DNA of 64,000 bases from Nitrosopumilaceae archaeon (GCA_965208905.1 OZ242365.1:1056001-1120000); one strand, 5' to 3'. Counted from the first letter of the stretch, positions 42,393 through 55,145 are shown. Translations and numbers: made by a program. Notes: generated from the letters alone by a model not told the origin.

Positions 42393-42876
42393 TGCGCCTG
42401 CAGGGCGGCGGTCTTGCCGTCCACAATCTGGGCAGGCGCGATACGTCGCAGTGGCCCGTACGACTCCAAGCCTTGGCGAATCACGGCTTTAGGCATTCGA
42501 TGCCTGTCGTCTGTACCGTGCTGCACGCCGGAGACCATCGGGTCGCCGGCAGGTGCTATAGGGAGCCGAAATCGGAAGATCACTCTTTGTACTGACCAGA
42601 CTGGCAACATCATATGTTGTTTGACTCTCATAGTTTATTATTGTACAGATATGACGGGGTTGCCCAACAAGCGTATTCATGCCGCTTGCGGTCAAATCTG
42701 GGGCGGTCTGGCGCGGGTTTCTGCCCCTCCATAATGCCACATAGTGTGGTATTTTTGCCTCGCAGGAGCCTATTTTGACGGCGCAGTTGTCCGTTTAAGC
42801 AGATCATAAGCCATACATGCCTGTATATGGAGTAGTGATGCCGGTGTTCTGTGTTGTTGTACTTTGGCACAGGGAA

Positions 42877-43447
42877 TTATATACCTGGGTATGCACGCGT
42901 AACATACGCGTACATTCCTAGATGCTTCATGGCGCTTGATGTTTTGGGTCGATTGCACGCTTGATTCTCACGCCGCCGTCTGGCGTCCGGAACTGCACAA
43001 ACAGGTGGCTTCCGGGTCCGGCCCATTTCACGCCTTTCGAGGGCTATTCCTTCCCCCGCGGGAACCTCTCGTCTGGTTCCCCGTTGTATGATGTTTACCG
43101 ACGCATTGCCGTCGGCATTTGCTACATGCCCACATCCCATACACTTGAACATCTCCCCATTTCGGTTCTCCTTGGATATGTAGCCGCATATACTGCACTC
43201 CTGGCTCGTGTGTTTTGGACTTACCTCTACTACATGGATGCCCAGCCGCTCTGCGATAATGCGTATTTTTCGCAGTATTGCATAATGCCGAATAAACCGC
43301 ATACCGCGATTCAGACCTGTCTTGTGCCTGCCACCGCGCCTGCTCATGGCCTCTAAGTTGAGCTGCTCGACATATATTACATCCACGCCCTCGCATATCT
43401 TCTTGGCTAGAAGCCACTCCGCATACTCGCGGTCATTCGCATTACCC
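42877..43447 (-). pseudogene. tnpB: tnpB, 3' part (RuvC-II, Zn finger, RuvC-III)
   Basis: IYVEQL, TSQECSICG...CMGCG, NADGNAS; cut off by IS3 at 43448. Confidence 0.92.
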
Positions 43448-44694
43448 TGGTGGGGACCCCGCTAGAATGAGAACACTCACGTTCATACAGCTTAAAGTCG
43501 TAATGGGAGGGATGATGCCATGGTAAGAACAAAGTTTACTCCAGACCAAAAGATCCAGATCGTTTTGGAATCAATCAAGACCAATATTGGCACGGCCGAG
43601 CTGTGCCGCAAGCACAACGTTCATCCCCAAACGTTTCAAGCCTGGCGGCAAAAGTTCATGGACGCAGGCAAGTCCGGACTGACCCATCACGGAAAGAAGG
43701 ATCCGATAAAGGCCATCAAAAAGGAGAACGGCGACCTAAAGCGAATCATAGGGGATCTGACAATCGCAAACGACGCTTTAAAAAAAACCTTGGAGGCAAG
43801 CAACGATTGAACGCGGTAAAAATCATGCAGGAACAACATTTGAGCCTGCGCAAGTCGCTAGGGTATGCGGGCGTATCCAGGCGCCAATGGTACTACAAAC
43901 CCAAGCCCAGAGACATGGGATTGAATCCGGATATATTGAGCACTGTGCTAGATACGAGCAGAAAGAGGCCCACGTACGGCACACGGCGCATGGCGGCCCA
44001 GATAACGCGCGATACGGGAATTGTGGTGAACCGCAAGCAGATACAGCGGATATATCGCAAAATGGGCTACATCCAGCCACAAAATACCAAAAACGACATC
44101 ATTCGAGCGGGTCAAAAGCTCTTCAAACCCAAAGCCCCACACCAGTTGTGGGAGACGGACATCACATACATCTGGTGCGGTATAGACGGCTGGTGCTACT
44201 GCTTCAACGTAATTGACTGCTTTACGCGCAAGTGGATCGCCTACGCGTTTGATGTCAATGCCACACGAGACATTGCAATCACCTCAATCACCAACGCGGT
44301 TGCCGCAGAGAAACCTGACTGCTCACAATTACGATTGCGTACGGACAACGGCAACCAGTATACGAGCCGCGACTTTAGACATGCGGTTCAGGCCCTTGGC
44401 ATCGGCAAACATGAATTCATCTACAAGAATACGCCGGAGCAGAACGGACATGTCGAATCATTTCACAAGACGCTGAAAAAGGAATACATCTGGCCGCACG
44501 AGTTTGCGAACTATCAGGAGGCAGAGACGATCATTGCAAAGGCCTTTGTAGATTACAACACCGAGAGGATTCATTCCTCTATCGGATACATGACACCAGT
44601 AGAATTTGCCGAACAGTTGGAGATGACAAATAAATGATGGAAGATGTATGTAAAATCATGCCGAAAACAGTAACATTCTATGGGGTCCACTCCA
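43448..44694 (+). mobile_element. IS3-family IS, copy 3, inserted in tnpB
   Basis: Same length, ends and ORF translations as copy 1; TSD ACCC at 43444-43447 and 44695-44698. Confidence 0.96.
43520..44637 (+). CDS. IS3 transposase OrfAB (-1 frameshift)
   Basis: Same translation as copy 1. Confidence 0.93.
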
Positions 44695-44769
44695 ACCCCG
44701 GTTGTACTTTTCTCGTTTATGTTTAATTTTACGTGTTGAGTTTGAGTGTTTGTTGTGGTGCGATATGGT
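44695..44769 (-). pseudogene. tnpB: tnpB, short middle fragment
   Basis: TISHHNKHSNSTRKIKHKREKYNRG joins both other fragments in frame. Confidence 0.85.
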
Positions 44770-44942
44770 GGGACTGGGAAGAAATGCTGACCTAGGGAAA
44801 GTGCTGACCCGAAGTGGGAAGAAATGCTGACCTGACCTATATTTCCACTCCGACCCCAATTTCCACTCCGCTAATTTGACCAATGTTTCCACTCCAGACA
44901 TGAACTACCCTAATGTTGAATAAAAGATGAAAAATATACTAC

Positions 44943-46250
44943 TTATTTTTGCTTGGCCTTGGCAGCAGCCTGTATGAGAGTCATCCACTTGTTATCACCC
45001 TGTACAATTATACCGGCGGCCTCTGCCGGAGTCTGGTTATCTGATAATCCAAGGTGTGAACGCACAAAGTTATGATATAACTTCAAACCTGTTATGATAC
45101 CCGAATCCTCGCGCTTTAGACCGCGCGTTACCTTCTCACGGTGACGTAACGTGTTCCCATTGAACGACTCCATCTGGTTGTTGTGATGTATGCCATCAAA
45201 CGCGACATCGTTTACATGTTGGGTTTCTTTGTGCAGAAAGTTCTTGGCTTTGTATTGTCTCTTCCATGCATTGTGGAAGTTTGTAGCACCGTCTGATATC
45301 AGGGTATCCGGAACCTTGCCTGCTATACATTTGGCCTGCTTGAACATTGGAGCCACATCATCATTGCCCTTATGTTCAGCCACCATCTTTGAAATCCAGT
45401 ATCTTGTATCTGAATCCAACATGGCAAACAAGTATCGCTTGTTGCCCTTAATTTTCAAGTGCAGCTCATCCGTTCTCCATTCCTCTCCGACCTGTAGTTG
45501 TATTGTATCAACATAGGACTCCATTAGTTTGGCGTAGGTAGCGGCCCAATTCTGTATGGTTCTGTAGGTTATCTTGGGGCCGTTCTGCCCCAACTGTCTT
45601 GCCACCTTCCTGGATGACAATCCACTAAAGTACATTCCTACTGCCGTACAGATGTCATCCGGCGTGGTATGCTTCATCTCAAAGCCAAGGTTCTGAATGA
45701 ATCGTCTCCCACATGTTTTGCAGCCGTACTGCTGTTTCTTGCGACACTTGCCCTTCTTGATGATATTAGTAGAGTCACAGAACTTGCATCTGGTGTGATC
45801 ATGCGGCTGTATTATACGCCGTTCACCATTATGCCACTGGACTGCTTGAATGTGTTTGCATGTACTCCCTGTATGTATGTGGTCCGGGCATGAACACATC
45901 CACCCGCTACCGAAATTACGCACCTCGTATGATTCATCAGTACTCTGTGATTTGACTAGATAGTGGTCGTGCGATATACGTTCTACCTGATTATTGGCCT
46001 GATGTATCATCATGCCGCGGTCAGCACGCGCCTTTGCGCCAAGATGCTCTTCTAATGCATATGCATGCTTGCAATATATCGCATCATCAGGACATGTACA
46101 GTTCCAGCTTCGGGCTGTCCGTGTCAACGTATACTTGACGCATGGTTCAGTCTGTGAACACACCTCGTATGTAGAATCATCTACTTGACGAATCTGATTC
46201 TTTTGTTTTGTTATCAATATGCCTCGTTGTTTTCTGTAATTCATTTGCAT
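44943..46250 (-). CDS. DDE transposase (IS6/IS1-like core) with two N-terminal SWIM fingers, Zn ribbon and HTH
   Basis: CTCPD..CKH, CSCPD..CKH, CKFC..CKTC, GLSSRKVA..TIQNW, WRTDE, ISDG, NNQMESFN; start uncertain. Confidence 0.88.
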   Translation of the reverse strand: MQMNYRKQRGILITKQKNQIRQVDDSTYEVCSQTEPCVKYTLTRTARSWNCTCPDDAIYCKHAYALEEHLGAKARADRGMMIHQANNQVERISHDHYLVKSQSTDESYEVRNFGSGWMCSCPDHIHTGSTCKHIQAVQWHNGERRIIQPHDHTRCKFCDSTNIIKKGKCRKKQQYGCKTCGRRFIQNLGFEMKHTTPDDICTAVGMYFSGLSSRKVARQLGQNGPKITYRTIQNWAATYAKLMESYVDTIQLQVGEEWRTDELHLKIKGNKRYLFAMLDSDTRYWISKMVAEHKGNDDVAPMFKQAKCIAGKVPDTLISDGATNFHNAWKRQYKAKNFLHKETQHVNDVAFDGIHHNNQMESFNGNTLRHREKVTRGLKREDSGIITGLKLYHNFVRSHLGLSDNQTPAEAAGIIVQGDNKWMTLIQAAAKAKQK

Positions 46251-46366
46251 GGTAGCGTATCGGCACCATTTAAGGCGGTAAAAGTCAATCTTGAGGTATA
46301 GGAGTACTCCTGTGAACGCTGTGGGCATACATAAAATGGACTATCTGGCAACTCCACGGGTTGTAA

Positions 46367-46513
46367 GGGACTGGGAAGAAACGCTGACCCAGAGTCGAAA
46401 TGGAGGTCTTGTACGATTAGGAGTGCGGAGTGGAAATTGTACGTCTGGGGCGGAAACATAGGTCAAATCACTACGCGCTATTTTGGGGCACACGCTATAT
46501 TTGGGACAGTTCA
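46367..46513. repeat. Internal transposon-end-like repeat cluster B
   Basis: GGGACTGGGAAGAAACGCTGACC plus CGGAGTGGAAA..GGTCA-type motifs and TTTGGGACAG. Confidence 0.85.
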
Positions 46514-46777
46514 AAGAGTGGTCCACTCAACATCCCGTGAAAACCGAGCTATGACTATCATCTTTGAGGAGTGCTTGAGTCCAGAGATAACATGACAGTA
46601 GTGTGTGTACTGGCCGGAGGGAGGCTGTAAAAACCAGTCCTATAAAGGGGCCTAGACTAGAAATGGCATAAGGTGTGTGGTAGGTGCATGAGGTCAGTTT
46701 TAGTGAACTGAGTATAAGGCTATGTACCATCATTTTCTGTCTTAAACATTGAAATTAACGATAAACGTTCGTGACAT

Positions 46778-47255
46778 ATGCGAGGCTATTATGCGATACA
46801 GGTTTGTATGAATGGGCATGTTATCACTGATCGGCATAGGTGGGACGACGTCGAATATTGTACAGAATGTGGGGAGAAGACAATAATCAAATGTCAAAAT
46901 CAAAGCTGTGGTGAGGAGATACGTGGTGAGTCAACTACCCCCTCCAATTTCCCGCTCGCTGTAGGTTGGCCCAGCACCAAATAACTGTCATAAATGTGGA
47001 GAACCATACCCTTGGACACGGGATAAGATCGAAGCACTTCAGAAGTTGATAGAGTTGTCATCTCTGGACAAGGAACACAAAAAATACGTGTTGGATGAGG
47101 TTGTACACATCATAAGTGAAACACCAAAGACCAAAATCATTTGTGATGTATTTAAGAAAATCATTCCTGAAGATGAATCATCGATTTGGTCTGTACTCAT
47201 AGAGGTGGCTACACAGAAGGCAAAGGACATTCTAACCGGCGTGTCACCGACATAG
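46778..47255 (+). pseudogene. DUF2321-like Zn-finger protein, frameshifted near 46970
   Basis: QVCMNGHVIT..CTECG..IRG, continuing in a shifted frame as CHKCGEPYPWT. Confidence 0.75.
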
Positions 47256-47322
47256 ATGGCAATTTACATGAAACCATCCAGATTTCCACAATGGGAGCCA
47301 AGAAAAGAGTAGCCTTTGTTAA

Positions 47323-50274
47323 TCATCCTTCCAAATCTTTCCGACCCAAATGCTTCTCATGTACCAACCAATCGTATATCTGTTCTAAGTTGTCCACACT
47401 CAATCCCAATATATCCGAAACACGCCTGTCAATCTCTTGTCGCACCTTATCACTATCCACCATATTGATGGGCTTCATCTCCTTTTTACAAAGGTCATCG
47501 AAAACCCCATCCAACTGTGTGATGATGTGTTCGTCCATGCTAGCAAAATCCGGCACAGGCATTTGTCTGCATGACGTTAGTGTCATCAAGCCACGTTCAG
47601 TTTGCTGTGAGTTGGATACGAACCAATATGTGAGTATTCCAAAGATTGAGTTAAACCATACCATAAACGCTTTTTCATGATTACTATCATTCAGTCTGAC
47701 GTTGGGCCATGCACTACCACCAACTGTCTCCATCTCCGTATATGCGGCAATCAATCGTTGGGAGGTATACCGAACATACAGGTTGATGTGTGTATGTGTT
47801 CTTGTATCCCAAACATTGTTTACCTGTTCCTTTGTTGCATCTTGTTTTTTCTCTAATGAATAATCCGGAGGCACAACCATAATTCGTTGTGTTTTAGCAT
47901 CATTTCCCCACAAACACTGGTATCTTTGTCTGCGCCCGTATCTGATTTTTATAAAAGGACCCTGCGGAGTACCATCATGTTTGGTTCCAATTATGTCAAG
48001 GTGATGTTTCCCCATGTACGATATTTCTCCAATAGTAGTCATTTCAATACCCAACCCACCATTTATCAGACTGTATGCAGTCTGTAAGAGAAATATGTTT
48101 GATGTTCTGGTCAACATCCATCGTCCATCTTCCACAGTACAGTCTAACATATCGCCAACATGTGTGTCTCCTAAAACAAGTGACGTTCCACCCATGCAAT
48201 GCTCAATTCTATTGGCCGGTGTTTTTCGTATGATTTTTGCAACCTCCAACCCTCCAAGACGTGACGTAGGTAGTTTATTGAGCAATACAAATTTAATTCT
48301 GGGAAATTGCCCTTCTGGCCACTTGGTTGTTCTTTTACGGGCTATCAATACCACCTCCTCCATTCCTGTACCGGCAGAGAAGGTCAACTCATCAGTTCCT
48401 GCTGAACGACGCAGTCTGACTACTGTTATGTCATCGTACCATTGGTTCAATACTTCACGTATGTCTGACCATGCCGAACCAGAAGTCATGGTAGCTGGCA
48501 GTATGAAGCCCATCACACCACCTGGTTTTAGTTTCCGATGGGTGATTGCAATAAAGTATGATGCCAGACCGGCATGTCCATGAGATCCGGTTTCGCAGAA
48601 GAGGTTAGCGTTGGTTTTTCCCATATCACTCTGTATATCCGGCGGTATACCAAATACAGCAAAAGGAGGAACCGGGTCGGTTCGTCCACTGCCGTGGTTT
48701 GTAGCCTTTACGAATGGTGGATTCATGAGTACAAAATCAAACGATTCAGAACGAAGCCTCACACTCGTAAGATTCTGTCCGCCTTGTCCACCATGTCTTT
48801 TACCAACATCTCCAGATAGTGCCTCTATCTCAAGGCTTATGGAGTCTTCACTAATTTCTGAATCTACATCTCTAATAAGATCCAACGAGCCCAATGAACG
48901 AACAGGTTTACGAGGCCGTGTCTTTACCGGCATCGGTGTCCCTATTGGCATCTGGTATATTCTGGCTTCTTTGAATATGTTCGCGGGATATAACACAGCC
49001 AAGTTGGAAACTGTCAAATGTGTTGCGGTCGGCATTATATCAAAACCCCACAATACATCAGCCATTACTGTGGGGTGCATCTTTGCAATATTCTCGTCAT
49101 TGGCATGACAATGTATTATGTGGTTATATGCGGCGGTCAGCAACATGCCGGTGCCACACGCAAAGTCAGCTATGCGGAGTTTCTCTATGCGAGATTTATC
49201 ATTCCAAATTTTATCACTTATCGGGGGCAATACAAGTTCGGCTAAAAGTGTAGCAGCTTCAGGTCTAGTATAGAATGAGGCCGATTTTTTTCGTTCAATT
49301 AGGTCATTCTGATATAATGCACCATATACATCGCCAGAATTCTGCATGCCGAGACTCATTACAACTGAGACTGTTTGAATTATCACATCTATAATGACAG
49401 ATGCAGATCGTTCCGGTATCACATTAAACAGGTCGCGTGTAATCTCAAAGACTGGACCATAATTGATGTCCAATACAGATTCCATACCATTCATGATGTC
49501 ATATTTGGTGGGCTTGTTTGTCAGAGAACCAATGGATGTAAGTGTCTTTATTTCGTCTAGATGTGAAGATAGTTCTTCATAAAAGATACTTCCATTGAGT
49601 AGCATCAACGCGGCCATAGACATAGCTTGTCTGTCACTCATACCATACAGGGTGTCAGTACTCTTGTTATAGCCCAACAAACTGATTATCTCTGACTTGA
49701 CACCGTTGTCAGCATCAACCAATGTATTGGCTATACTGTTTATCTGCTTCTGAATAATTTCTGTATACTCATCTTCAACATTGCGTGATACTATGGAAAG
49801 GCGTGTCGCCGTTATAACATCGGTTATGTTCCCCCTTAGGTATCCGTTGGTGGGAAATCTGTTGGTGCGGTCATGTACAAAATATTCCAGCTCGGAACTA
49901 CCAAACTTTGTTCGAAAGTCATCCGCGTCATCTGCATGCGCAAGCTCGTCGGGGAACAGCACCCCGACTATGGCTGACGGTGTGATGTTACCTTCCTCCA
50001 ACGTTACTTCTAAACGGTCGCCGACCTCCCGCTCCAGATTGCTCCTGTCTGTCTCCAACTCAATAATTACGGCTTGGTTTACGCTTCCTGTCCCCTTTGG
50101 TCGCACTATGATGTCAGGTCGCTTGCCGTGTTTACCAGAGACGGTCCGTGTCCTCTCGGCCTTTGCAGTACACCAGCCACTGTCATTTATGACCTCTGCT
50201 ACCCAGGGGTTGATTGCAGACTCTACGGCCCGGCCACCACGACGCGTTATGGGAAGCAACCTCCGTCCGGCCAC
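47323..50274 (-). CDS. Fused restriction endonuclease / N6-adenine methyltransferase (type IIG/IIL-like)
   Basis: N-terminal PDII..IIELE, FYT, DFACGTG, MNPPF, C-terminal specificity-like region. Confidence 0.85.
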   Translation of the reverse strand: MAGRRLLPITRRGGRAVESAINPWVAEVINDSGWCTAKAERTRTVSGKHGKRPDIIVRPKGTGSVNQAVIIELETDRSNLEREVGDRLEVTLEEGNITPSAIVGVLFPDELAHADDADDFRTKFGSSELEYFVHDRTNRFPTNGYLRGNITDVITATRLSIVSRNVEDEYTEIIQKQINSIANTLVDADNGVKSEIISLLGYNKSTDTLYGMSDRQAMSMAALMLLNGSIFYEELSSHLDEIKTLTSIGSLTNKPTKYDIMNGMESVLDINYGPVFEITRDLFNVIPERSASVIIDVIIQTVSVVMSLGMQNSGDVYGALYQNDLIERKKSASFYTRPEAATLLAELVLPPISDKIWNDKSRIEKLRIADFACGTGMLLTAAYNHIIHCHANDENIAKMHPTVMADVLWGFDIMPTATHLTVSNLAVLYPANIFKEARIYQMPIGTPMPVKTRPRKPVRSLGSLDLIRDVDSEISEDSISLEIEALSGDVGKRHGGQGGQNLTSVRLRSESFDFVLMNPPFVKATNHGSGRTDPVPPFAVFGIPPDIQSDMGKTNANLFCETGSHGHAGLASYFIAITHRKLKPGGVMGFILPATMTSGSAWSDIREVLNQWYDDITVVRLRRSAGTDELTFSAGTGMEEVVLIARKRTTKWPEGQFPRIKFVLLNKLPTSRLGGLEVAKIIRKTPANRIEHCMGGTSLVLGDTHVGDMLDCTVEDGRWMLTRTSNIFLLQTAYSLINGGLGIEMTTIGEISYMGKHHLDIIGTKHDGTPQGPFIKIRYGRRQRYQCLWGNDAKTQRIMVVPPDYSLEKKQDATKEQVNNVWDTRTHTHINLYVRYTSQRLIAAYTEMETVGGSAWPNVRLNDSNHEKAFMVWFNSIFGILTYWFVSNSQQTERGLMTLTSCRQMPVPDFASMDEHIITQLDGVFDDLCKKEMKPINMVDSDKVRQEIDRRVSDILGLSVDNLEQIYDWLVHEKHLGRKDLEG

Positions 50275-50623
50275 CTCTTTGCAGTATTAAATCTACCAAA
50301 TGTTTTGTAGCTTGCTTTATAGTGCCAATAGACGCACCACAACCGTGATGATTGCCCACCGCTAGTTGTTCGTGCCGCCAAGCACTGTTCGTGCCGCCAA
50401 GCACTGTTCGTGCCGCCAAGCACTGTTCAGCTTCCAAGGTCTGCGAGCACCCTCTCTGCATTAAGAGAATGTCTATCCTTGACTGCGTCTCCCCAATTTC
50501 CAACACCGTCGCCTTTCTCTTGGATTCAATCTTTGATGCCAGCCCACAGTAGATAGCCCGATGCTGGCCTTGTTTATGCCGGATAATGTTGCCCTTGATG
50601 GTCTTGAAGTTGATGGAACTCAT
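50183..50623 (-). pseudogene. Small hypothetical gene, probably frameshifted by a 19-bp tandem repeat
   Basis: ORF runs through the repeat 50367-50428; with one unit it would end ...EQCLAARTTSGGQSSRLWCVYWHYK...GGCFP*. Confidence 0.45.
50367..50428. repeat. 19-bp tandem repeat x3.3 (TGTTCGTGCCGCCAAGCAC)
   Basis: Three perfect units plus TGTTC. Confidence 0.95.
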
Positions 50624-50737
50624 ATAGAAAATATAGACGATCTGTTAATAAGGTTATACGAACAGCCGCCTCCAAACTCAGTGTTGTAAGAACTTTTAAC
50701 CTAACTGAACTATTAAAATTATGATCTGGAATTGTCC

Positions 50738-50867
50738 TGACCTATGTTTCCGCCTCAGACCAACATTTCCACTCCGCTAAAACATACCTCGTTTCCACTC
50801 CGCACGCCTGATGTATAACTAATGTACTCCAACTACTATTTCCAGTCTAGGCACCACTTTGGGACAG
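50738..50867. repeat. Internal repeat cluster C
   Basis: TGACCTATGTTTCCGCCTC, two TTTCCACTCCG motifs, and one arm of a 24-bp inverted repeat. Confidence 0.85.
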
Positions 50868-50935
50868 GCGCCATTAATGGGACAGTCCACACAATCAATC
50901 CCCTTTTAATATAATGTCGTTTTGATAACCACATT

Positions 50936-51454
50936 GTGGACTGGTACGCGGAGATTTTACCATCAATTATGTCAGCATCGATAGCGATTGCCATAATAAC
51001 TACACTTGTGCTAGCAAGGAAGGACAAGAAACGCGAGTGCCGCGAGAGGCAAGCTACGGAGGTAAAGATGCTGCTTGATGCACACATGAACTTATGGAGT
51101 GGCCTGCGGCAGATGGAGGCGCATGCTGCTGGTATACCTGATAGGAATAAGCAGTCGGGTAGTCACGCCCTGTTGGTAGACGACTTCAAGTGGCTTCGCG
51201 ACGTATTACGCAACGAGTCGCTCATGTTGGCGCCCGAGATACATGATGAATACGTCAAGTTTCTCAAAGAACCCCTGAAGCAGGCAATGTTTGGCCTCGG
51301 CAGCTATATCCCCGCTAGCTCTCACATATATGGTGCGTCAGATACACCGTACTTGGCTAACCTCTCCAAAATGCAGCAAATAGCCGAGAAGCAGTGGAAG
51401 AAGTATGAGTCCGAATACCGCATGCTTGGTGGAAAGTATCCGCACGCCAGATGA
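50936..51454 (+). CDS. Hypothetical protein with N-terminal TM helix
   Basis: 172-aa ORF with hydrophobic N-terminus. Confidence 0.7.
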   Translation: MDWYAEILPSIMSASIAIAIITTLVLARKDKKRECRERQATEVKMLLDAHMNLWSGLRQMEAHAAGIPDRNKQSGSHALLVDDFKWLRDVLRNESLMLAPEIHDEYVKFLKEPLKQAMFGLGSYIPASSHIYGASDTPYLANLSKMQQIAEKQWKKYESEYRMLGGKYPHAR

Positions 51455-51476
51455 TCTTCCAATACCTCAACCCACA

Positions 51477-52430
51477 TTACGCCTCAACAGTAGGATAGTC
51501 AACATACTCGAACTTCAGCGACTCTATCATGGCCTTGGCCTCCTCAACACATTCAAACTTGGGCGAACACACCAGATAACCTATACCGCGCCTCTCCTCC
51601 GTAAACCCGCCTTGGCCGACCCGAAGGGCTATGACACACCGGTTCTCCGGCAGATGAAGTCCCCACTCTTTTGGTATGAATATACTCCACGGCTGCTGCC
51701 AGTGTTCCATGTATGCAACAACCACTCCCGGGCGGTACCTGCGCATCTGCCCCATCTTGCGCGTCAGGGTGTGGAAGTTGGCATCGGCATCGTCTCCCCT
51801 ACCTCCGTATTTTGTGACGTACTTCATTTTGGGGCGGTACTTGCCCGGATCAATGCAGAACTCGCCCCCCACATACACACCGCGCTTCATGGTACATGCC
51901 TCTTCGTATGCAAGCGGACCAGTGCCGTACCAAACCTCTACGTCCCACCTGTTGTTGTTCATGTCTTCAATGTCAATGTCAAATGTATGTTTGTTGTCAC
52001 AGTCCATATGTTCCACCTCGATGTCCACTATTCGGAATCCTGCCTCGTAGAACCACTTGGTGACGCGCGCCTGAACTGCAATCCCGCCCCCATCACTGCC
52101 TGTCTGCAAGCGATCCAACTCCCTGTCGACATCGCCCCGCAACTCGTAGATGTTTTGGGCCGTCTCAAATTTCCGCATCAGGTTGGGGTGTAGCCGGCGC
52201 AATTCGTCAATGTCGGGTGCATCCTGCCGCTCCAATATGTGTCGCAGGGTTCGTGTTCGACACAACTGTCCACGGTAGTCCGTGATCTGTTTTGTGATGG
52301 AATCGTACTTCTTGGCTTGGCCCTCCCGGCAAATATTGGACTGGTTTGTCTTCCACCACTCCAGCAACTCGTCCAACGTTTTGAGGCCCGCGCATGGGTC
52401 AAATTTTGCCATGCTCTGTTCCCGATGCAC
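51477..52430 (-). CDS. Hypothetical protein, possible PD-(D/E)XK nuclease fold
   Basis: FDIDIEDMNNNRWDVEV acidic motif; function tentative. Confidence 0.55.
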   Translation of the reverse strand: MHREQSMAKFDPCAGLKTLDELLEWWKTNQSNICREGQAKKYDSITKQITDYRGQLCRTRTLRHILERQDAPDIDELRRLHPNLMRKFETAQNIYELRGDVDRELDRLQTGSDGGGIAVQARVTKWFYEAGFRIVDIEVEHMDCDNKHTFDIDIEDMNNNRWDVEVWYGTGPLAYEEACTMKRGVYVGGEFCIDPGKYRPKMKYVTKYGGRGDDADANFHTLTRKMGQMRRYRPGVVVAYMEHWQQPWSIFIPKEWGLHLPENRCVIALRVGQGGFTEERRGIGYLVCSPKFECVEEAKAMIESLKFEYVDYPTVEA

Positions 52431-52461
52431 ATCTTCTATTAAGGTTTAGCTTTGACCTGAA

Positions 52462-52585
52462 CTGTCCCAAAGTGGTGCCTAGACTAGATATAGGGCCATG
52501 TTTAGTGGAGGGGAGATTATACGTCTAAGGTGGAAACGTAGGTCACCAACTTTCCAATTCTGGGTCAGTGTTTCTTACCAGTCCA
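52462..52585. repeat. Internal repeat cluster D
   Basis: Second arm of the 24-bp inverted repeat, GGTGGAAACGTAGGTCA, right-end-like GGGTCAGTGTTTCTTACCAGTCC. Confidence 0.85.
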
Positions 52586-52652
52586 GATTATGATGTGTAG
52601 TGTTTGTCCAAATAACACCCGGAATTCAGAAAAACCACGTCACCCGCAGATA

Positions 52653-53555
52653 TTAGGTTCGGCGCTTCCCAGTCTTACATTGTTTAAGTTTCAGCAGCAG
52701 TCTTTTAATATCCTTCTCATCTCTTACAGGCGCATAGTAGTTGCCCGTACCGTGGTGGCCAGGATCGGATACATCCTTTACAAATTCATCTTCCGTAAAA
52801 TCACCCTTCCGACCAAAATAGACTTTGATCTTACTACGCTGAACTATCGCGGTGCATAGTAGATACTCACCATCACGCCCAAATCCGACATAGTATTTCG
52901 TTGGCAATTCCTTTACTCCTGAGAATGTAGAGAGCATCCTATCACGAAGTGTCTTGTATAGTGGGTTTTTGGATTCATGTGGATTGGTGTTCGAAGTTCG
53001 TTCTTGCTCTGTGTTGGTTTCAAGTATTTTAGGTGTAGTCTTTACGGCCGTATCTATTGGACCGCGTTTACCAGCTATATACCTCAGTGTCACAATCCCA
53101 TTTTCAAACTTCCTTAACTCATACAGGCATTCATTATCTTTTTTACCCGCAGCGTATATCTGATCCTTGTTAAACTCTGGTGCGACGATTATTGCATAGA
53201 TGTTATTCCACTTGAATGAATTCGGATCCTCATGGGCGTTATACGATTTATTGTATGCCAGAGTCAGTGTAGCGCGATTATCATCCATCTTATTGAGATA
53301 GTTTTCGGCCTGCTGGCGAACCGTATCAGAACGCCTGTTCTTGTACTCGATTGCTACAAAAGTATGGGCTTGGGGGTCATATACAACCGTATCTGGAATT
53401 TTGTCTGATATTTGCATCTTACTTTTGACCAACTTTAGATTTGGAAATAGTATGTGTAGATTATCTTCGAACCACTTGTGTTGTTTACTCTCGTCGGGAA
53501 AGTTAACATCGTCCAACTCACAACATCCTTTGGTGGATGTGTAGAATGTACGCAT
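52653..53555 (-). CDS. NucS-like endonuclease + DUF5655-like domain
   Basis: E..PDTVVYD..VAIEYK..Q..Y, IIVAPEF, TKYYVGF, GHHGTGNY. Confidence 0.78.
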   Translation of the reverse strand: MRTFYTSTKGCCELDDVNFPDESKQHKWFEDNLHILFPNLKLVKSKMQISDKIPDTVVYDPQAHTFVAIEYKNRRSDTVRQQAENYLNKMDDNRATLTLAYNKSYNAHEDPNSFKWNNIYAIIVAPEFNKDQIYAAGKKDNECLYELRKFENGIVTLRYIAGKRGPIDTAVKTTPKILETNTEQERTSNTNPHESKNPLYKTLRDRMLSTFSGVKELPTKYYVGFGRDGEYLLCTAIVQRSKIKVYFGRKGDFTEDEFVKDVSDPGHHGTGNYYAPVRDEKDIKRLLLKLKQCKTGKRRT

Positions 53556-53752
53556 ACGTTTTTGGTATAATGGCGATATTTAATATTGTTGTAAATGTGA
53601 AGTCATGCCTGGACTAGTAATGTAGGTATGCAACCACCATTTCTACTCCGCTAAAACAGATCTCATTTCCAGTCCGGACGCCTGATGTATAAAGACCTGC
53701 GTTTCCAGTCCGGGTCAGTACTTTCCCTAGGTCAGCATTTCTTCCCAGTTCC

Positions 53753-54456
53753 GATATGGTACGGCGCGTCTCATCATTCCATGTACGGTTCGTGCGGAAT
53801 GCGGTTGCTGTATCGTATGATGTGATATTTGAGGTGTTATGGTCTGTCTTGCACACGACGGTCGGATTTGTTATCCCCCTGTCTATGCCGGCAACAACCC
53901 CGGTCTTGGCGCACCGTTCGGGTGCCGGTACGTCATATGTTATGTGTAGCCGGTAGATATGGTCACACGACTTGACATGCACCCACGACTTTGGTGTAAC
54001 CTGCACCAAACGGAAAGACCTGGCGCCATACAGCCAGTTGTGTGGAAATTGATATGACTGCTCCTCGCACAACTCAACAACACCAAGGCCCGGCAATGAC
54101 GCGTGCCTGTTGTCCACATATACAGGCTGCACATCACATGATACTGCCTTTGTATTATCGCGCTTTCTGGAGCGGAAACTTAGTTTGCCGTTGCCGTATT
54201 TGTTCGAGACATCCGCAGCAGTGCGGGCTTGGTGTATGGCAGTATTTTGGTATATACGCTCTACTGTTTGCAGCCACTGCACGGAACGCCTCATCTTGGT
54301 GAACTCCCTGGAGAGATCATATGTAGTGAGTGTGGGGTTAGTAAGCAGCCGCTCCACGGCCCAGTTGTACACGAACCGCTGTGAGTCCCGTATTTTAGAT
54401 ATGTGACGCGCCTGAGAGCGTGTCAGGTCTATGCGGAAACCATAAGACCGATACAT
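53753..54456 (-). pseudogene. tnpB: tnpB, 5' part (HTH/REC-WED, RuvC-I)
   Basis: YGFRI..RFVYNWA, GIDRG; cut by the 9-kb transposon at RRTIS. Confidence 0.92.
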
Positions 54457-54533
54457 GTAGTTTTATACACTATAATACTTTATAAATATGTATCCTACAG
54501 GACTTGCCTTGCCTGCCCAGGCATATAATTCCC

Positions 54534-55145
54534 TTGGCACATGTAGATGGATTTAATATTCATAATACAACAAGAGCATCAATGATACATACCAAGTGGT
54601 CAGATGACTTTATGGGGATAGCGTATAGATACTTTGATCTGCGCATGAATATTGTTCCCTTACTGCCCCATAGAAAGAAGGCATTAAAGATGTGGCAGGA
54701 TGTAATACATTGGTGGTATGATGCATCCATTCGTGTCAGGTTTATAGAGTATCCAGACCAGTACAGGTTTGTCATAGGTGCCGAGTCGCGAAGACCCGAC
54801 TCGAATGTGTCATTTTACAAAATACTACACAAATCGCCACACTATGAGCGATTCAAGACAGGGTATGGTGATGCAGCATATCTGCGTCTGGGAGAGTACT
54901 CAACAAAGAGACTACAGGATGTAAAGGATTCAGATGTATGCAACTGTGGTCATCCGGCAGGAGACCATGCAGATGATGAGAGTACAGAGTGTCTGGAGGA
55001 CGGGTGTGATTGTAATGAGTTTGTTCAGACGCAGGTGTACATGTTGCGGCGTAAAAAGACCATAACAGACATTGTATTCTTGGATTATACGGATATAGAA
55101 AAAGATCCATTATCTTGGAACTGTATAAACTCCAATCCTAGTTGA
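54534..55145 (+). CDS. Hypothetical protein with Cys/His-rich motif
   Basis: CNCGH..H..C..CDC; the probable TTG start is the first codon of the TSD. Confidence 0.7.
   Translation: MAHVDGFNIHNTTRASMIHTKWSDDFMGIAYRYFDLRMNIVPLLPHRKKALKMWQDVIHWWYDASIRVRFIEYPDQYRFVIGAESRRPDSNVSFYKILHKSPHYERFKTGYGDAAYLRLGEYSTKRLQDVKDSDVCNCGHPAGDHADDESTECLEDGCDCNEFVQTQVYMLRRKKTITDIVFLDYTDIEKDPLSWNCINSNPS

Follow-up and report, generated by a model that had tools for sequence, protein, structure and literature searches.

A TnpB-only family with IS1595-type ends in a Nitrosopumilaceae archaeon, probably moved in trans

TnpB nucleases and the elements that carry them

Cas12 descends from TnpB, a nuclease whose presence in mobile DNA is usually explained by way of scarless HUH or serine transposases. 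The elements concerned, the IS1341 group of IS200/IS605 and IS607, have neither terminal inverted repeats (TIRs) nor target-site duplications (TSDs), according to a 2026 review (PMC13565253). In the main text of Altae-Tran et al. (2023; PMC10691335), six DDE-associated TnpB branches (DDE-1 to DDE-6) with inverted terminal repeats are described, together with solo TnpBs that have the same ends and are moved in trans. Of the vehicles, that text names IS630 (DDE-6) only; the 2026 review lists ISL2, IS630 and IS1031, calls TnpB-DDE associations rare and discusses the reasons (PMC13565253). IS1595 is mentioned in the main text of neither paper. Its family traits are given as an 8-bp TSD, TIRs starting with GG, and a transposase with a Zn ribbon and a DDE_Tnp_IS1595 domain (PMC8101967). 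Fanzor1, as outlined in PMC10711439 and PMC3627910, can be the sole gene of a TIR- and TSD-bounded element without transposase, an example being the non-autonomous Fanzor-only element of a Spodoptera frugiperda ascovirus, and its guide-RNA scaffold includes the TIR.

The locus described here lies in a window of 64,000 nucleotides of a Nitrosopumilaceae archaeon (GCA_965208905.1, OZ242365.1:1056001-1120000) and belongs to what is called family T below. Like the published DDE branches, it has tnpB within an inverted-repeat element, with the 3' end of the gene near the end of the element, and solo copies share their ends with transposase-bearing ones; it differs in its IS1595-type vehicle with 8-bp TSDs, in its archaeal host and in the position of its stop codon inside the TIR. 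The original prediction held that a TnpB captured by a DDE element might be new to prokaryotes. Worded in this way the claim does not stand, as DDE elements that carry TnpB between inverted ends were published in 2023 (PMC10691335). Judged against the main texts, the IS1595-type carrier appears to be new, while DDE-borne TnpB and trans-moved solo TnpBs are known. With IS1595 passenger elements (transporter IS), family T has the 8-bp TSD and the GG-starting TIRs in common, but its cargo is a putative RNA-guided nuclease with a candidate RNA overlapping the TIR; the elements U and V of the same genome carry a methylase-HNH passenger. With Fanzor1 it shares the arrangement described above, the scaffold in family T being a candidate. 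The host, however, is an archaeon, and at 445 aa the protein is compact and has the canonical D-E-D triad of a TnpB; the likeness meant here is one of arrangement. A Fanzor identity was rejected; all 45 related loci are found in Nitrosopumilaceae or Thaumarchaeota MAG records. In IS607 and the IS1341 group, as in family T, the protein is a TnpB and the 3' end of its gene includes a conserved RNA-like region, but family T possesses both TIRs and TSDs, and its genome lacks both types of TnpA.

The element in the window and its sister copies

The features of the locus, in window positions, are as follows.

42864-42871, no strand: left TSD, TTGGCACA, by direct read; identical to 54535-54542
42872-42894, no strand: left TIR, GGGAATTATATACCTGGGTATGC, at the 3' end of tnpB; alignments of the sister copies begin exactly here
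42872-43091, minus: candidate omegaRNA scaffold that covers the 3' end of tnpB and extends over ~220 nt to the element boundary (conservation and covariation)
42877-43446, minus: C-terminal piece of tnpB, about residues 256-445, with YVEQL (RuvC-II), a CxxC...CxxC zinc ribbon and NADGN (RuvC-III); PF07282, E 1.8e-18; 91% identity to an intact copy
~43448-44694, plus: IS3-family insertion sequence (HTH_Tnp_1, rve, rve_3), delimited by the break in collinearity
44695-44769, minus: middle piece of tnpB, 75 nt between the nested insertions; matches the intact copy at 553922 over its positions 573-647 with 83% identity
44770-53752, no strand: nested element of 8,983 bp with 51-nt inverted ends (44770-44820 and 53702-53752) that are 90% complementary
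53753-54456, minus: N-terminal piece of tnpB, residues 1 to ~235, with HTH_OrfB_IS605 and RuvC-I GIDRG; 91% identity to an intact copy
54457-54511, minus: short leader separating the tnpB start codon from the TIR; TATA-like TTTATAAA ~30 nt before the ATG
54512-54534, no strand: right TIR at the 5' end of tnpB, reverse complement GGGAATTATATGCCTGGGCAGGC; 20/23 against the left TIR
54535-54542, no strand: right TSD, TTGGCACA, by direct read
~54553-54562, plus: TATA-like box TTTAATATT in the host flank; an ATG follows ~25 nt further, at 54582

The stretch 42864-54542 holds a 1.42-kb non-autonomous element, now dead, that two later insertions have broken. Most of what had been predicted for it was borne out: a direct read recovered the 23-bp inverted ends (20/23) and the perfect 8-bp repeat, and when the two insertions are excised ~1,420 bp are left that are collinear with intact copies. 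The end of the element, put at 54541, was corrected to 54542, since the right TSD occupies 54535-54542. The 445-aa TnpB with GIDRG, YVEQL, NADGN and a zinc finger was likewise found in the translated pieces, and its stop codon (42877-42879) does lie inside the TIR. A member of family T thus consists of two ~23-bp IS1595-type TIRs flanking a single gene, tnpB.

The nested IS3-family sequence, bordered by a ~4-bp duplication, ACCC, contains orfA (43520-43810) and an orfB reading frame running to 44637. The 8,983-bp element encodes a transposase with SWIM and DDE_Tnp_IS240 domains (44943-46328, minus), an Eco57I-like N6 methylase (47323-50274, minus), a DUF5655 protein and others, and has further copies of its end repeats inside; no clean target duplication was seen around it.

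Seven additional copies, as had been expected of a mobile element, are present in the genome and are 86-100% identical to one another (eight copies in total with that of the window), each with a different 8-bp flank repeat, of which five are perfect, one matches at 7/8 and one at 6/8 positions. Copies T1 and T4 are separated by two differences in 1,420 nt. For four of the four T copies tested, an empty site was found in the closest relative (G005), where the 8-mer occurs once, and the duplication therefore arises on insertion. The empty allele of the window copy itself, also foreseen, was absent from the relatives searched; G005 and G008 lack the ~190-bp segment that houses this copy. Homologous loci number 45 in five congeneric Nitrosopumilaceae genomes, and 37 of them are bounded by GGGAATTAT-type TIRs and an 8-bp TSD (28 perfect, nine with one mismatch). 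These results show that family T is a real mobile family that transposes with an 8-bp staggered cut.

The protein itself is a typical TnpB. The pieces in the window match HTH_OrfB_IS605, OrfB_IS605 and the Cas12f1-like TNB domain; the TnpB of intact copies matches PF07282 (E 1.6e-17), PF01385 (E 9e-8) and PF12323 (E 3e-6), and the PDB sequences matched by the family are chains of TnpB and Cas12f, with E values from 2e-14 to 1e-10. These Pfam and PDB matches would suit an ordinary IS1341-type TnpB-only element of IS200/IS605 in which the inverted ends and the flank repeat occur by chance. That reading deserves practically no credence. A generic control scan for a TIR with a perfect 8-bp TSD matched just 3 of 300 random loci, each of the three proving to be a genuine element, and the reading is refuted by the recurring, differing TSDs of the eight copies, by the empty sites and by the 37 of 45 loci in relatives. 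It is also opposed by the gene content of the genome, a single contig that is 99.57% complete: Y1_Tnp (PF01797) and Resolvase (PF00239, serine recombinase) gave no match in it, while the TNB domain of TnpB gave 75. The same searches detected Y1_Tnp in 6 and Resolvase in 12 of 14 control genomes. Across the taxonomic family PF01797 occurs in 4 of 81 genomes, and in none of the four genomes of the genus in that sample. Membership of IS200/IS605 (IS1341 group) is ruled out by the TIRs, the 8-bp TSDs and the lack of PF01797 matches; that of IS607 by the lack of PF00239 matches, TIRs and TSDs being present.

Among ten TnpB proteins (57-100% identity), D192, E283 and D368 are invariant in all ten, as are the zinc-finger residues C340, C343, C358 and C361. 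Within the coding core, conservation is lowest at third codon positions (0.52 vs 0.78 at second positions). From these invariant residues, the codon-position pattern and the conserved RNA-like region at the 3' end, the TnpB of family T appears to be functional. The TATA-like TTTATAAA in the leader is a candidate promoter.

IS1595-type ends and probable movement in trans

The same genome contains autonomous IS1595 elements, Y (two identical copies), U and V, with intact proteins of 316-320 aa that carry DDE_Tnp_IS1595 (E ~1e-40) and a Zn ribbon. Their termini read GGGAATTATA(TA) at both ends and are flanked by 8-bp TSDs. They agree with family T in the 8-bp duplication and in the outermost 10-13 bases; further inward the TIRs of T are unlike theirs. 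In two congeners, a T-type tnpB and an IS1595 transposase stand together in three compound units, each with one perfect 8-bp TSD.

L074, 2106-4667: TSD CCGGTATC, transposase intact
L076, 1920-4520: TSD TACCGCGA
L075, 1723-4231: TSD GGGTCTAG

The termini shared with intact elements and the compound units both support the assignment to IS1595 that had been proposed, and the elements Y, U and V supply, over their first 10-13 bases, the autonomous partners with matching ends that had been called for. The ISNwi1 subgroup label with its end consensus GGnnATTAT, presumably applicable to the ends of family T, is a finer assignment; Siguier, Gagnevin and Chandler (2009) reportedly described the end consensus of the ISNwi1 group and the passenger-carrying groups of IS1595. 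In the intact 1.42-kb copies, tnpB is the sole ORF with a family match and a transposase gene of their own is absent, so that T is a derivative cassette rather than an independent IS. On these sequence comparisons, family T is very probably a cassette that has IS1595-type ends, encodes TnpB alone, without a transposase, and is moved in trans with TnpB as cargo. An IS1595-family DDE transposase made elsewhere would bind the TIRs and move the cassette, in which TnpB would act as cargo and not as transposase. Of the original prediction, the non-autonomous DDE-borne TnpB cassette is upheld by the copies, the TSDs and the IS1595 termini; its novelty, as noted, is not.

The enzyme responsible for the recent T1/T4 duplication is less easily named. 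The transposase type of the compound units is represented in this genome by fragments only (1506930-1507572 and 1365500-1365727, 62-65% identity), and the TSDs of Y, U and V are AT-rich 8-mers (GC 0.03, n=4) compared with 0.44 for family T (n=8). In another genome, G009, 14 T-type matches were found with just one Y-type transposase match at E<=1e-30, and a degenerate one.

With no intact cognate IS1595 transposase left in the genome, a DDE transposase of another family could be considered, namely the IS6/IS240-like SWIM-DDE type, which is abundant here and also makes 8-bp duplications, the IS1595-like ends then being convergent. Six such paralogues are present; the element that carries one of them measures 3,360 bp, has perfect TIRs of 16 nt that begin with GGTTCTGTCAAGAT, and is flanked by an 8-bp TSD. 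This explanation is nevertheless improbable: the termini of T agree over 10-13 bases with IS1595 elements and not with IS6-like ones, and in the three compound units the transposase present is of the IS1595 type, each unit being duplicated as a whole. Still less likely is that TnpB-only elements are autonomous, TnpB acting as their transposase with the help of host factors. The 75 TNB-domain matches in a genome without TnpA and the recent duplication of T without an intact cognate transposase would be in line with this, as would the TnpB-only families W, P, Q and R, which have TIRs and 8-bp TSDs and for which no partner with matching ends was found. An 8-bp staggered duplication with GG-starting TIRs is, however, the signature of IS1595 (PMC8101967), and compound units that include a transposase offer the simpler answer.

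A candidate omegaRNA, target sites and the value of the genus

Conservation over the final ~220 nt exceeds that of the coding core (mean pairwise identity 0.76-0.83 vs 0.59-0.75), also at third codon positions (0.72 vs 0.52). A consensus fold of this region has 55 pairs, with 97.7% of cells paired and eight pairs with double changes; its covariation score was reached by none of 500 shuffles, the fold having been derived from the alignment on which it was scored and overlapping the coding sequence. Rfam gave no match for the region. Such a hyper-conserved, covarying 3' stretch is compatible with an omegaRNA that ends in the inverted repeat. As the putative scaffold would end in the TIR, the guide would consist of the 8-bp duplication and the adjacent flank. 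Cutting of the emptied site followed by recombinational restoration has been shown for IS605 and IS607. By analogy, the TnpB of family T may retain its own function and could cut the precisely emptied site, thereby forcing its restoration via recombination. In family T no conserved motif lies immediately 5' of the TSD and consequently no TAM is evident, which makes the homing role putative.

In two other groups, nearly invariant bases occur beside the duplication. The base directly 5' of it is G in 17 of 18 sites of families X and Z, and in family W a T is found at -2 in 13 of 13 sites. With a guide made up of the duplication and its flank, these bases would stand at the place required of a TAM. 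The T and X/Z TnpB lineages, which are 29% identical, both reside in IS1595-type ends.

Insertions of family T recur, in a single orientation, at a fixed distance from TATA-like boxes, the TSD starting 11 nt past a BRE/TATA-like motif. Next to the window copy, the ATG at 54582 opens a reading frame to 55145 (plus) that is divergent from tnpB and for which no Pfam family was found.

A joint reading of these observations is possible, if tentative: the TnpB-omegaRNA modules of this genus may have left HUH and serine transposons and now ride DDE vehicles (IS1595-type for T, X and Z, possibly IS6-like for W, P, Q and R) to which they are functionally coupled, with promoter-directed integration of T. 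If so, the fixed spacing of T would reflect integration directed by transcription factors, comparable to that of yeast Ty3, and homing by TnpB would filter, or even direct, which DDE insertions persist.

The genus offers a natural system for studying whether and how TnpB serves cut-and-paste DDE elements. IS1595-type ends enclose at least two TnpB lineages, stripped and compound forms exist alongside autonomous ones, empty sites are available and TnpA is absent; the co-adaptation of guide RNA, TIR and target choice is therefore directly testable. The 445-aa nucleases are, in addition, candidates for TAM and editing screens.

The window copy of family T and its relatives

The tnpB-only element in the window, a member of family T, is bounded by an 8-bp direct repeat, and 23-nt inverted ends lie directly inside both copies of this repeat (20 of 23 bases match).

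Features of the window copy (window coordinates)
42864-42871 and 54535-54542, both flanks: 8-bp direct repeat TTGGCACA, read directly
54456-53753, 44769-44695 and 43446-42877, minus strand: tnpB in three pieces, joined by their collinearity
about 43448-44694: nested IS3-family IS that breaks tnpB
44770-53752: nested 8,983-bp element with 51-nt inverted ends that breaks tnpB

The gene encodes HTH_OrfB_IS605, OrfB_IS605 and Cas12f1-like TNB domains (Pfam) and retains the motifs GIDRG, YVEQL, and NADGN; its stop codon falls within the inverted repeat. The copy is dead because two later insertions disrupted tnpB. The larger insertion encodes a transposase with SWIM and IS240-type DDE domains, a 983-aa Eco57I-like N6 methylase, and a DUF5655 protein; several further ORFs in it match no known family, and additional copies of its end repeats lie in its interior. 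A clean TSD was not seen around this element. The original prediction had the ends, the 8-bp repeat, and the split tnpB right and placed the end of the T copy one base short of position 54542.

Other copies with different 8-bp TSDs had been named as support for such an element, and BLAST searches with both arms located seven of them (1,420-1,438 bp) in the 2.21-Mb single-contig genome. The flank repeat differs from copy to copy and is perfect in five of them, 7/8 in one, and 6/8 in one. Two sister copies, T1 and T4, differ at only 2 of 1,420 positions, which therefore indicates recent transposition in the lineage. The empty allele proposed for the window copy was not found in flank searches within the genus. 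Both of its flanks occur in the closest relative (G005), 1.7 kb apart, and the copy lies inside a unique segment of ~190 bp (about 42686-42863) missing from G005 and from a second genome of the genus, G008. As the window copy has no empty site, its sisters were used for the empty-site test: an uninterrupted site with a single 8-mer was present in G005 for all four copies tested. T-type TnpB is absent from G005. At nearly the same place as the window copy (orthologous to window ~42660), G005 holds a different, 1.69-kb TnpB-only element (L034/L040, G005:C1:1927954-1929678), with 25-nt TIRs starting GGTTCTTTCGAAAATACGG and an 8-bp repeat matching at 7/8. In a control scan that required 14-nt inverted ends (11 or more matches) and a perfect 8-bp repeat, 3 of 300 random loci were positive, and each of the three proved to be a genuine element.

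Five of the nine other genomes of the genus contain T-type TnpBs (56-67 % identity); a search of 31 genomes outside the genus found none. A pattern-based scan using one genome per species yielded 45 T-type loci, each of them in a Nitrosopumilaceae or Thaumarchaeota MAG record and all from the same five genomes. Ends of the GGGAATTAT type with an 8-bp repeat were present at 37 of the 45 (28 perfect, nine with one mismatch); three of the remaining eight lie at contig ends. Both ends of each T lineage co-vary over about 25 nt, as expected of transposase-binding sites.

Transposases and other TnpB families of the genome

The 99.57 %-complete, single-contig genome of the window (G000) gave 75 matches to the TnpB TNB domain. 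Neither Y1_Tnp (Y1 TnpA) nor Resolvase (serine recombinase) had a match in it; as positive controls, the two families matched 6 and 12, respectively, of the 14 reference genomes. The original prediction had also named an autonomous IS1595/IS6-like element with the same TIRs as support. Four intact IS1595 elements were found in G000. They encode 316- to 320-aa proteins with a DDE_Tnp_IS1595 domain (E about 1e-40) and an IS1595 Zn ribbon, and both termini of all four are GGGAATTATA, with 8-bp repeats. The IS1595 family is defined by 8-bp TSDs, a Zn finger, and this DDE domain (PMC8101967).

IS1595 elements of G000 and compound units of congeners (locus coordinates)
Y: two identical copies, 2,131 bp, IS1595 transposase
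U: 2,690 bp, IS1595 transposase with a methylase-HNH passenger
V: 2,837 bp, IS1595 transposase with a methylase-HNH passenger
L074, 2106-4667: compound unit, 2,562 bp, transposase intact
L076, 1920-4520: compound unit, 2,601 bp, transposase frameshifted
L075, 1723-4231: compound unit, 2,509 bp, transposase with a stop

The most direct link between T and IS1595 is provided by the three compound units. In each, a T-type tnpB is followed by an IS1595 transposase gene, with a third, internal TIR between the two genes, and the unit as a whole is flanked by one perfect 8-bp repeat. Seen beside these units, T looks like one that has lost its transposase or, just as well, like a tnpB that gained two ends. 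The transposase type of the compound units is present in G000 as fragments only. The TSDs of Y, U, and V (GC 0.03, n = 4) and those of a second TnpB-only family, X/Z (0.16, n = 13), are AT-rich, whereas those of T are not (0.44, n = 8). Another genome of the genus, G009, has 14 T-type matches versus only one degenerate match to a Y-type transposase at the threshold used.

TIRs with a perfect 8-bp repeat were found by a strict scan at 30 of the 74 TnpB loci of G000, in several families, compared with the 3 of 300 random loci given above.

Other TnpB-only families of G000
X/Z: ~1.47 kb, 13 or more copies, GGGAATTATATAC termini as in T, AT-rich 8-bp TSDs; for example, C1 33496-34967, 102957-104422, and 728475-729950 (loci L001, L003)
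W: ends starting GGTTCCTCCCGCAA, 8-bp TSDs, 26 end pairs, 14 with a perfect repeat; for example, C1 28035-29550, 239554-241169, and 999540-1000124
P, Q, and R: TIRs TGGGCTGGTAACTA, GGAGCTGTCAAATC, and TGGGCTGTGACGTT, respectively, each bounded by TIR and 8-bp repeat

The TnpBs of X/Z and T share only 29 % identity, which therefore implies either two captures or one old capture. W also occurs as miniature derivatives of 355-585 bp. Two adjacent W elements (G000:C1:924780-927837) have swapped flank 8-mers, TTAAACTC...AGCGTTGA followed by AGCGTTGA...TTAAACTC, as expected of recombination between copies or of one element inserted beside the other. The ends of W, P, Q, and R presumably resemble those of the IS6 family; a transposase with matching ends was not found for them in G000. 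Well-matched TIR/TSD pairs were not found at five of six loci of SWIM-DDE (IS6/IS240-like) transposases, and a motif search allowing three mismatches was too noisy to be of use for finding end partners. A second IS1595-like family (139060-140130 and copies) was rejected as partner for the other TIR types, as its ends differ (CGCTCATCT...). A 3,115-bp unit in G005 (L057 1157-4271; G005:C1:10156-13270) has GGGAATTATAT ends, one of them 27/28 identical to a T end, and a perfect TSD, GTCGCTTT. It encodes a 460-aa TnpB of the P/Q/R type and a DDE_Tnp_1 protein of 340 aa, and represents either a third type of DDE-TnpB unit or one element nested in another.

Insertion sites

The flanks of 43 distinct T insertions (loci L078-L121 and eight sites in G000) were compared after orientation by tnpB. 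Ahead of the duplication, in the flank next to the tnpB 5' end, positions -17 to -11 form a TATA-box-like A-T-A-W-A-A-R; T is found at -8, and A does not occur at -5. Of 35 sites in relatives, 15 carry the strict motif, compared with 1 of 35 on the mirror side and with 9 of 7,000 random flank positions. The motif was derived from the data on which it was scored, which inflates the probability, but the contrast is large. T sites are rarer inside long ORFs than random positions are (17/40 versus 303/400), and a divergent ORF begins within 100 nt upstream of them more often (17/40 versus 31/400). Many of these starts lie ~40-45 nt from the T site, a spacing like that of a leaderless archaeal promoter, and in the window copy, too, a TATA-like box (about 54553-54562) is followed by an ATG (54582). 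It was also considered that a host promoter might drive a gene lying downstream of the cassette. Within 40 nt downstream, starts of ORFs of 80 aa or more are not enriched (15/43, versus 11/43 on the mirror side and 785/3,000 random positions), and this reading was dropped for one with a divergent gene upstream. T insertions appear to be placed just upstream of host core promoters, and their tight register suggests targeting rather than the mere survival of harmless insertions.

Near-invariant bases are also found next to the duplications of X/Z and W, confined to the flank at the tnpB 5' end. Position -1 in X/Z, immediately before the TSD, is G in 13/13 copies in G000 and in 4/5 in a congener, G006 (loci L129-L148), which makes 17/18 in total. 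In W of G000, T occupies -2 in 13/13 and A or G occupies -1 in 12/13. A TAM would lie at this position if the guide consisted of the duplication and its flank. These patterns may instead reflect a transposase preference, given that autonomous IS1595 elements have G or C at -1 in 7/7 cases.

The TnpB protein, its candidate omegaRNA, and published systems

Residues D192, E283, and D368 and four zinc-finger cysteines are invariant in ten TnpB proteins, down to 57 % identity. Conservation in the coding core is 0.70, 0.78, and 0.52 at first, second, and third codon positions; the low third-position value indicates selection on the TnpB protein. In the last ~220 nt, conservation rises to 0.76-0.83 versus 0.59-0.75 in the coding core, with third positions at 0.72. 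Folding 15 sequences to a consensus gives 55 pairs (97.7 % of cells paired), eight of which are kept through two-sided changes. The covariation score was reached by 0/500 shuffles and the double-change count by 4/500, for a fold derived from the same alignment. The 3' region fits a predicted omegaRNA scaffold overlapping the 3' end of tnpB and extending into the TIR. This predicted arrangement matches the one described for Fanzor1 in TIR elements (PMC10711439). An Rfam search of four elements gave no match to an omegaRNA family and returned flanking tRNA only. Parts of the family (90-99 % identity) are present in four sponge metatranscriptome runs, as contigs that are uninformative on RNA ends or expression; one contig ends 2 nt past the TIR, as assemblies do at repeats, and is likewise uninformative on RNA ends.

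In the literature, searches for TnpB linked with IS1595 (by title and abstract), Nitrosopumil, or non-autonomous DDE mobilisation returned nothing relevant, and the same was true for ISNwi1. IS1595 is mentioned in the main text of neither Altae-Tran et al. (2023, PMC10691335) nor a 2026 review (PMC13565253). The main text of the former describes six TnpB branches associated with DDE transposases, each having inverted terminal repeats, names IS630 among the DDE vehicles of TnpB, and reports solo TnpBs with ends matching those of transposase-bearing relatives, for which mobilisation in trans was inferred; that of the latter lists ISL2, IS630, and IS1031 and calls DDE associations rare. The novelty suggested for the window element is not supported as worded, because both DDE-associated branches and trans-moved solo TnpBs are already published (PMC10691335, main text). 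By comparison with these main texts, and with an IS1595-linked branch perhaps among DDE-1 to DDE-5 of PMC10691335, the cassette with IS1595-type ends is no new category but a further variant of the published kind of TnpB carried in DDE elements.
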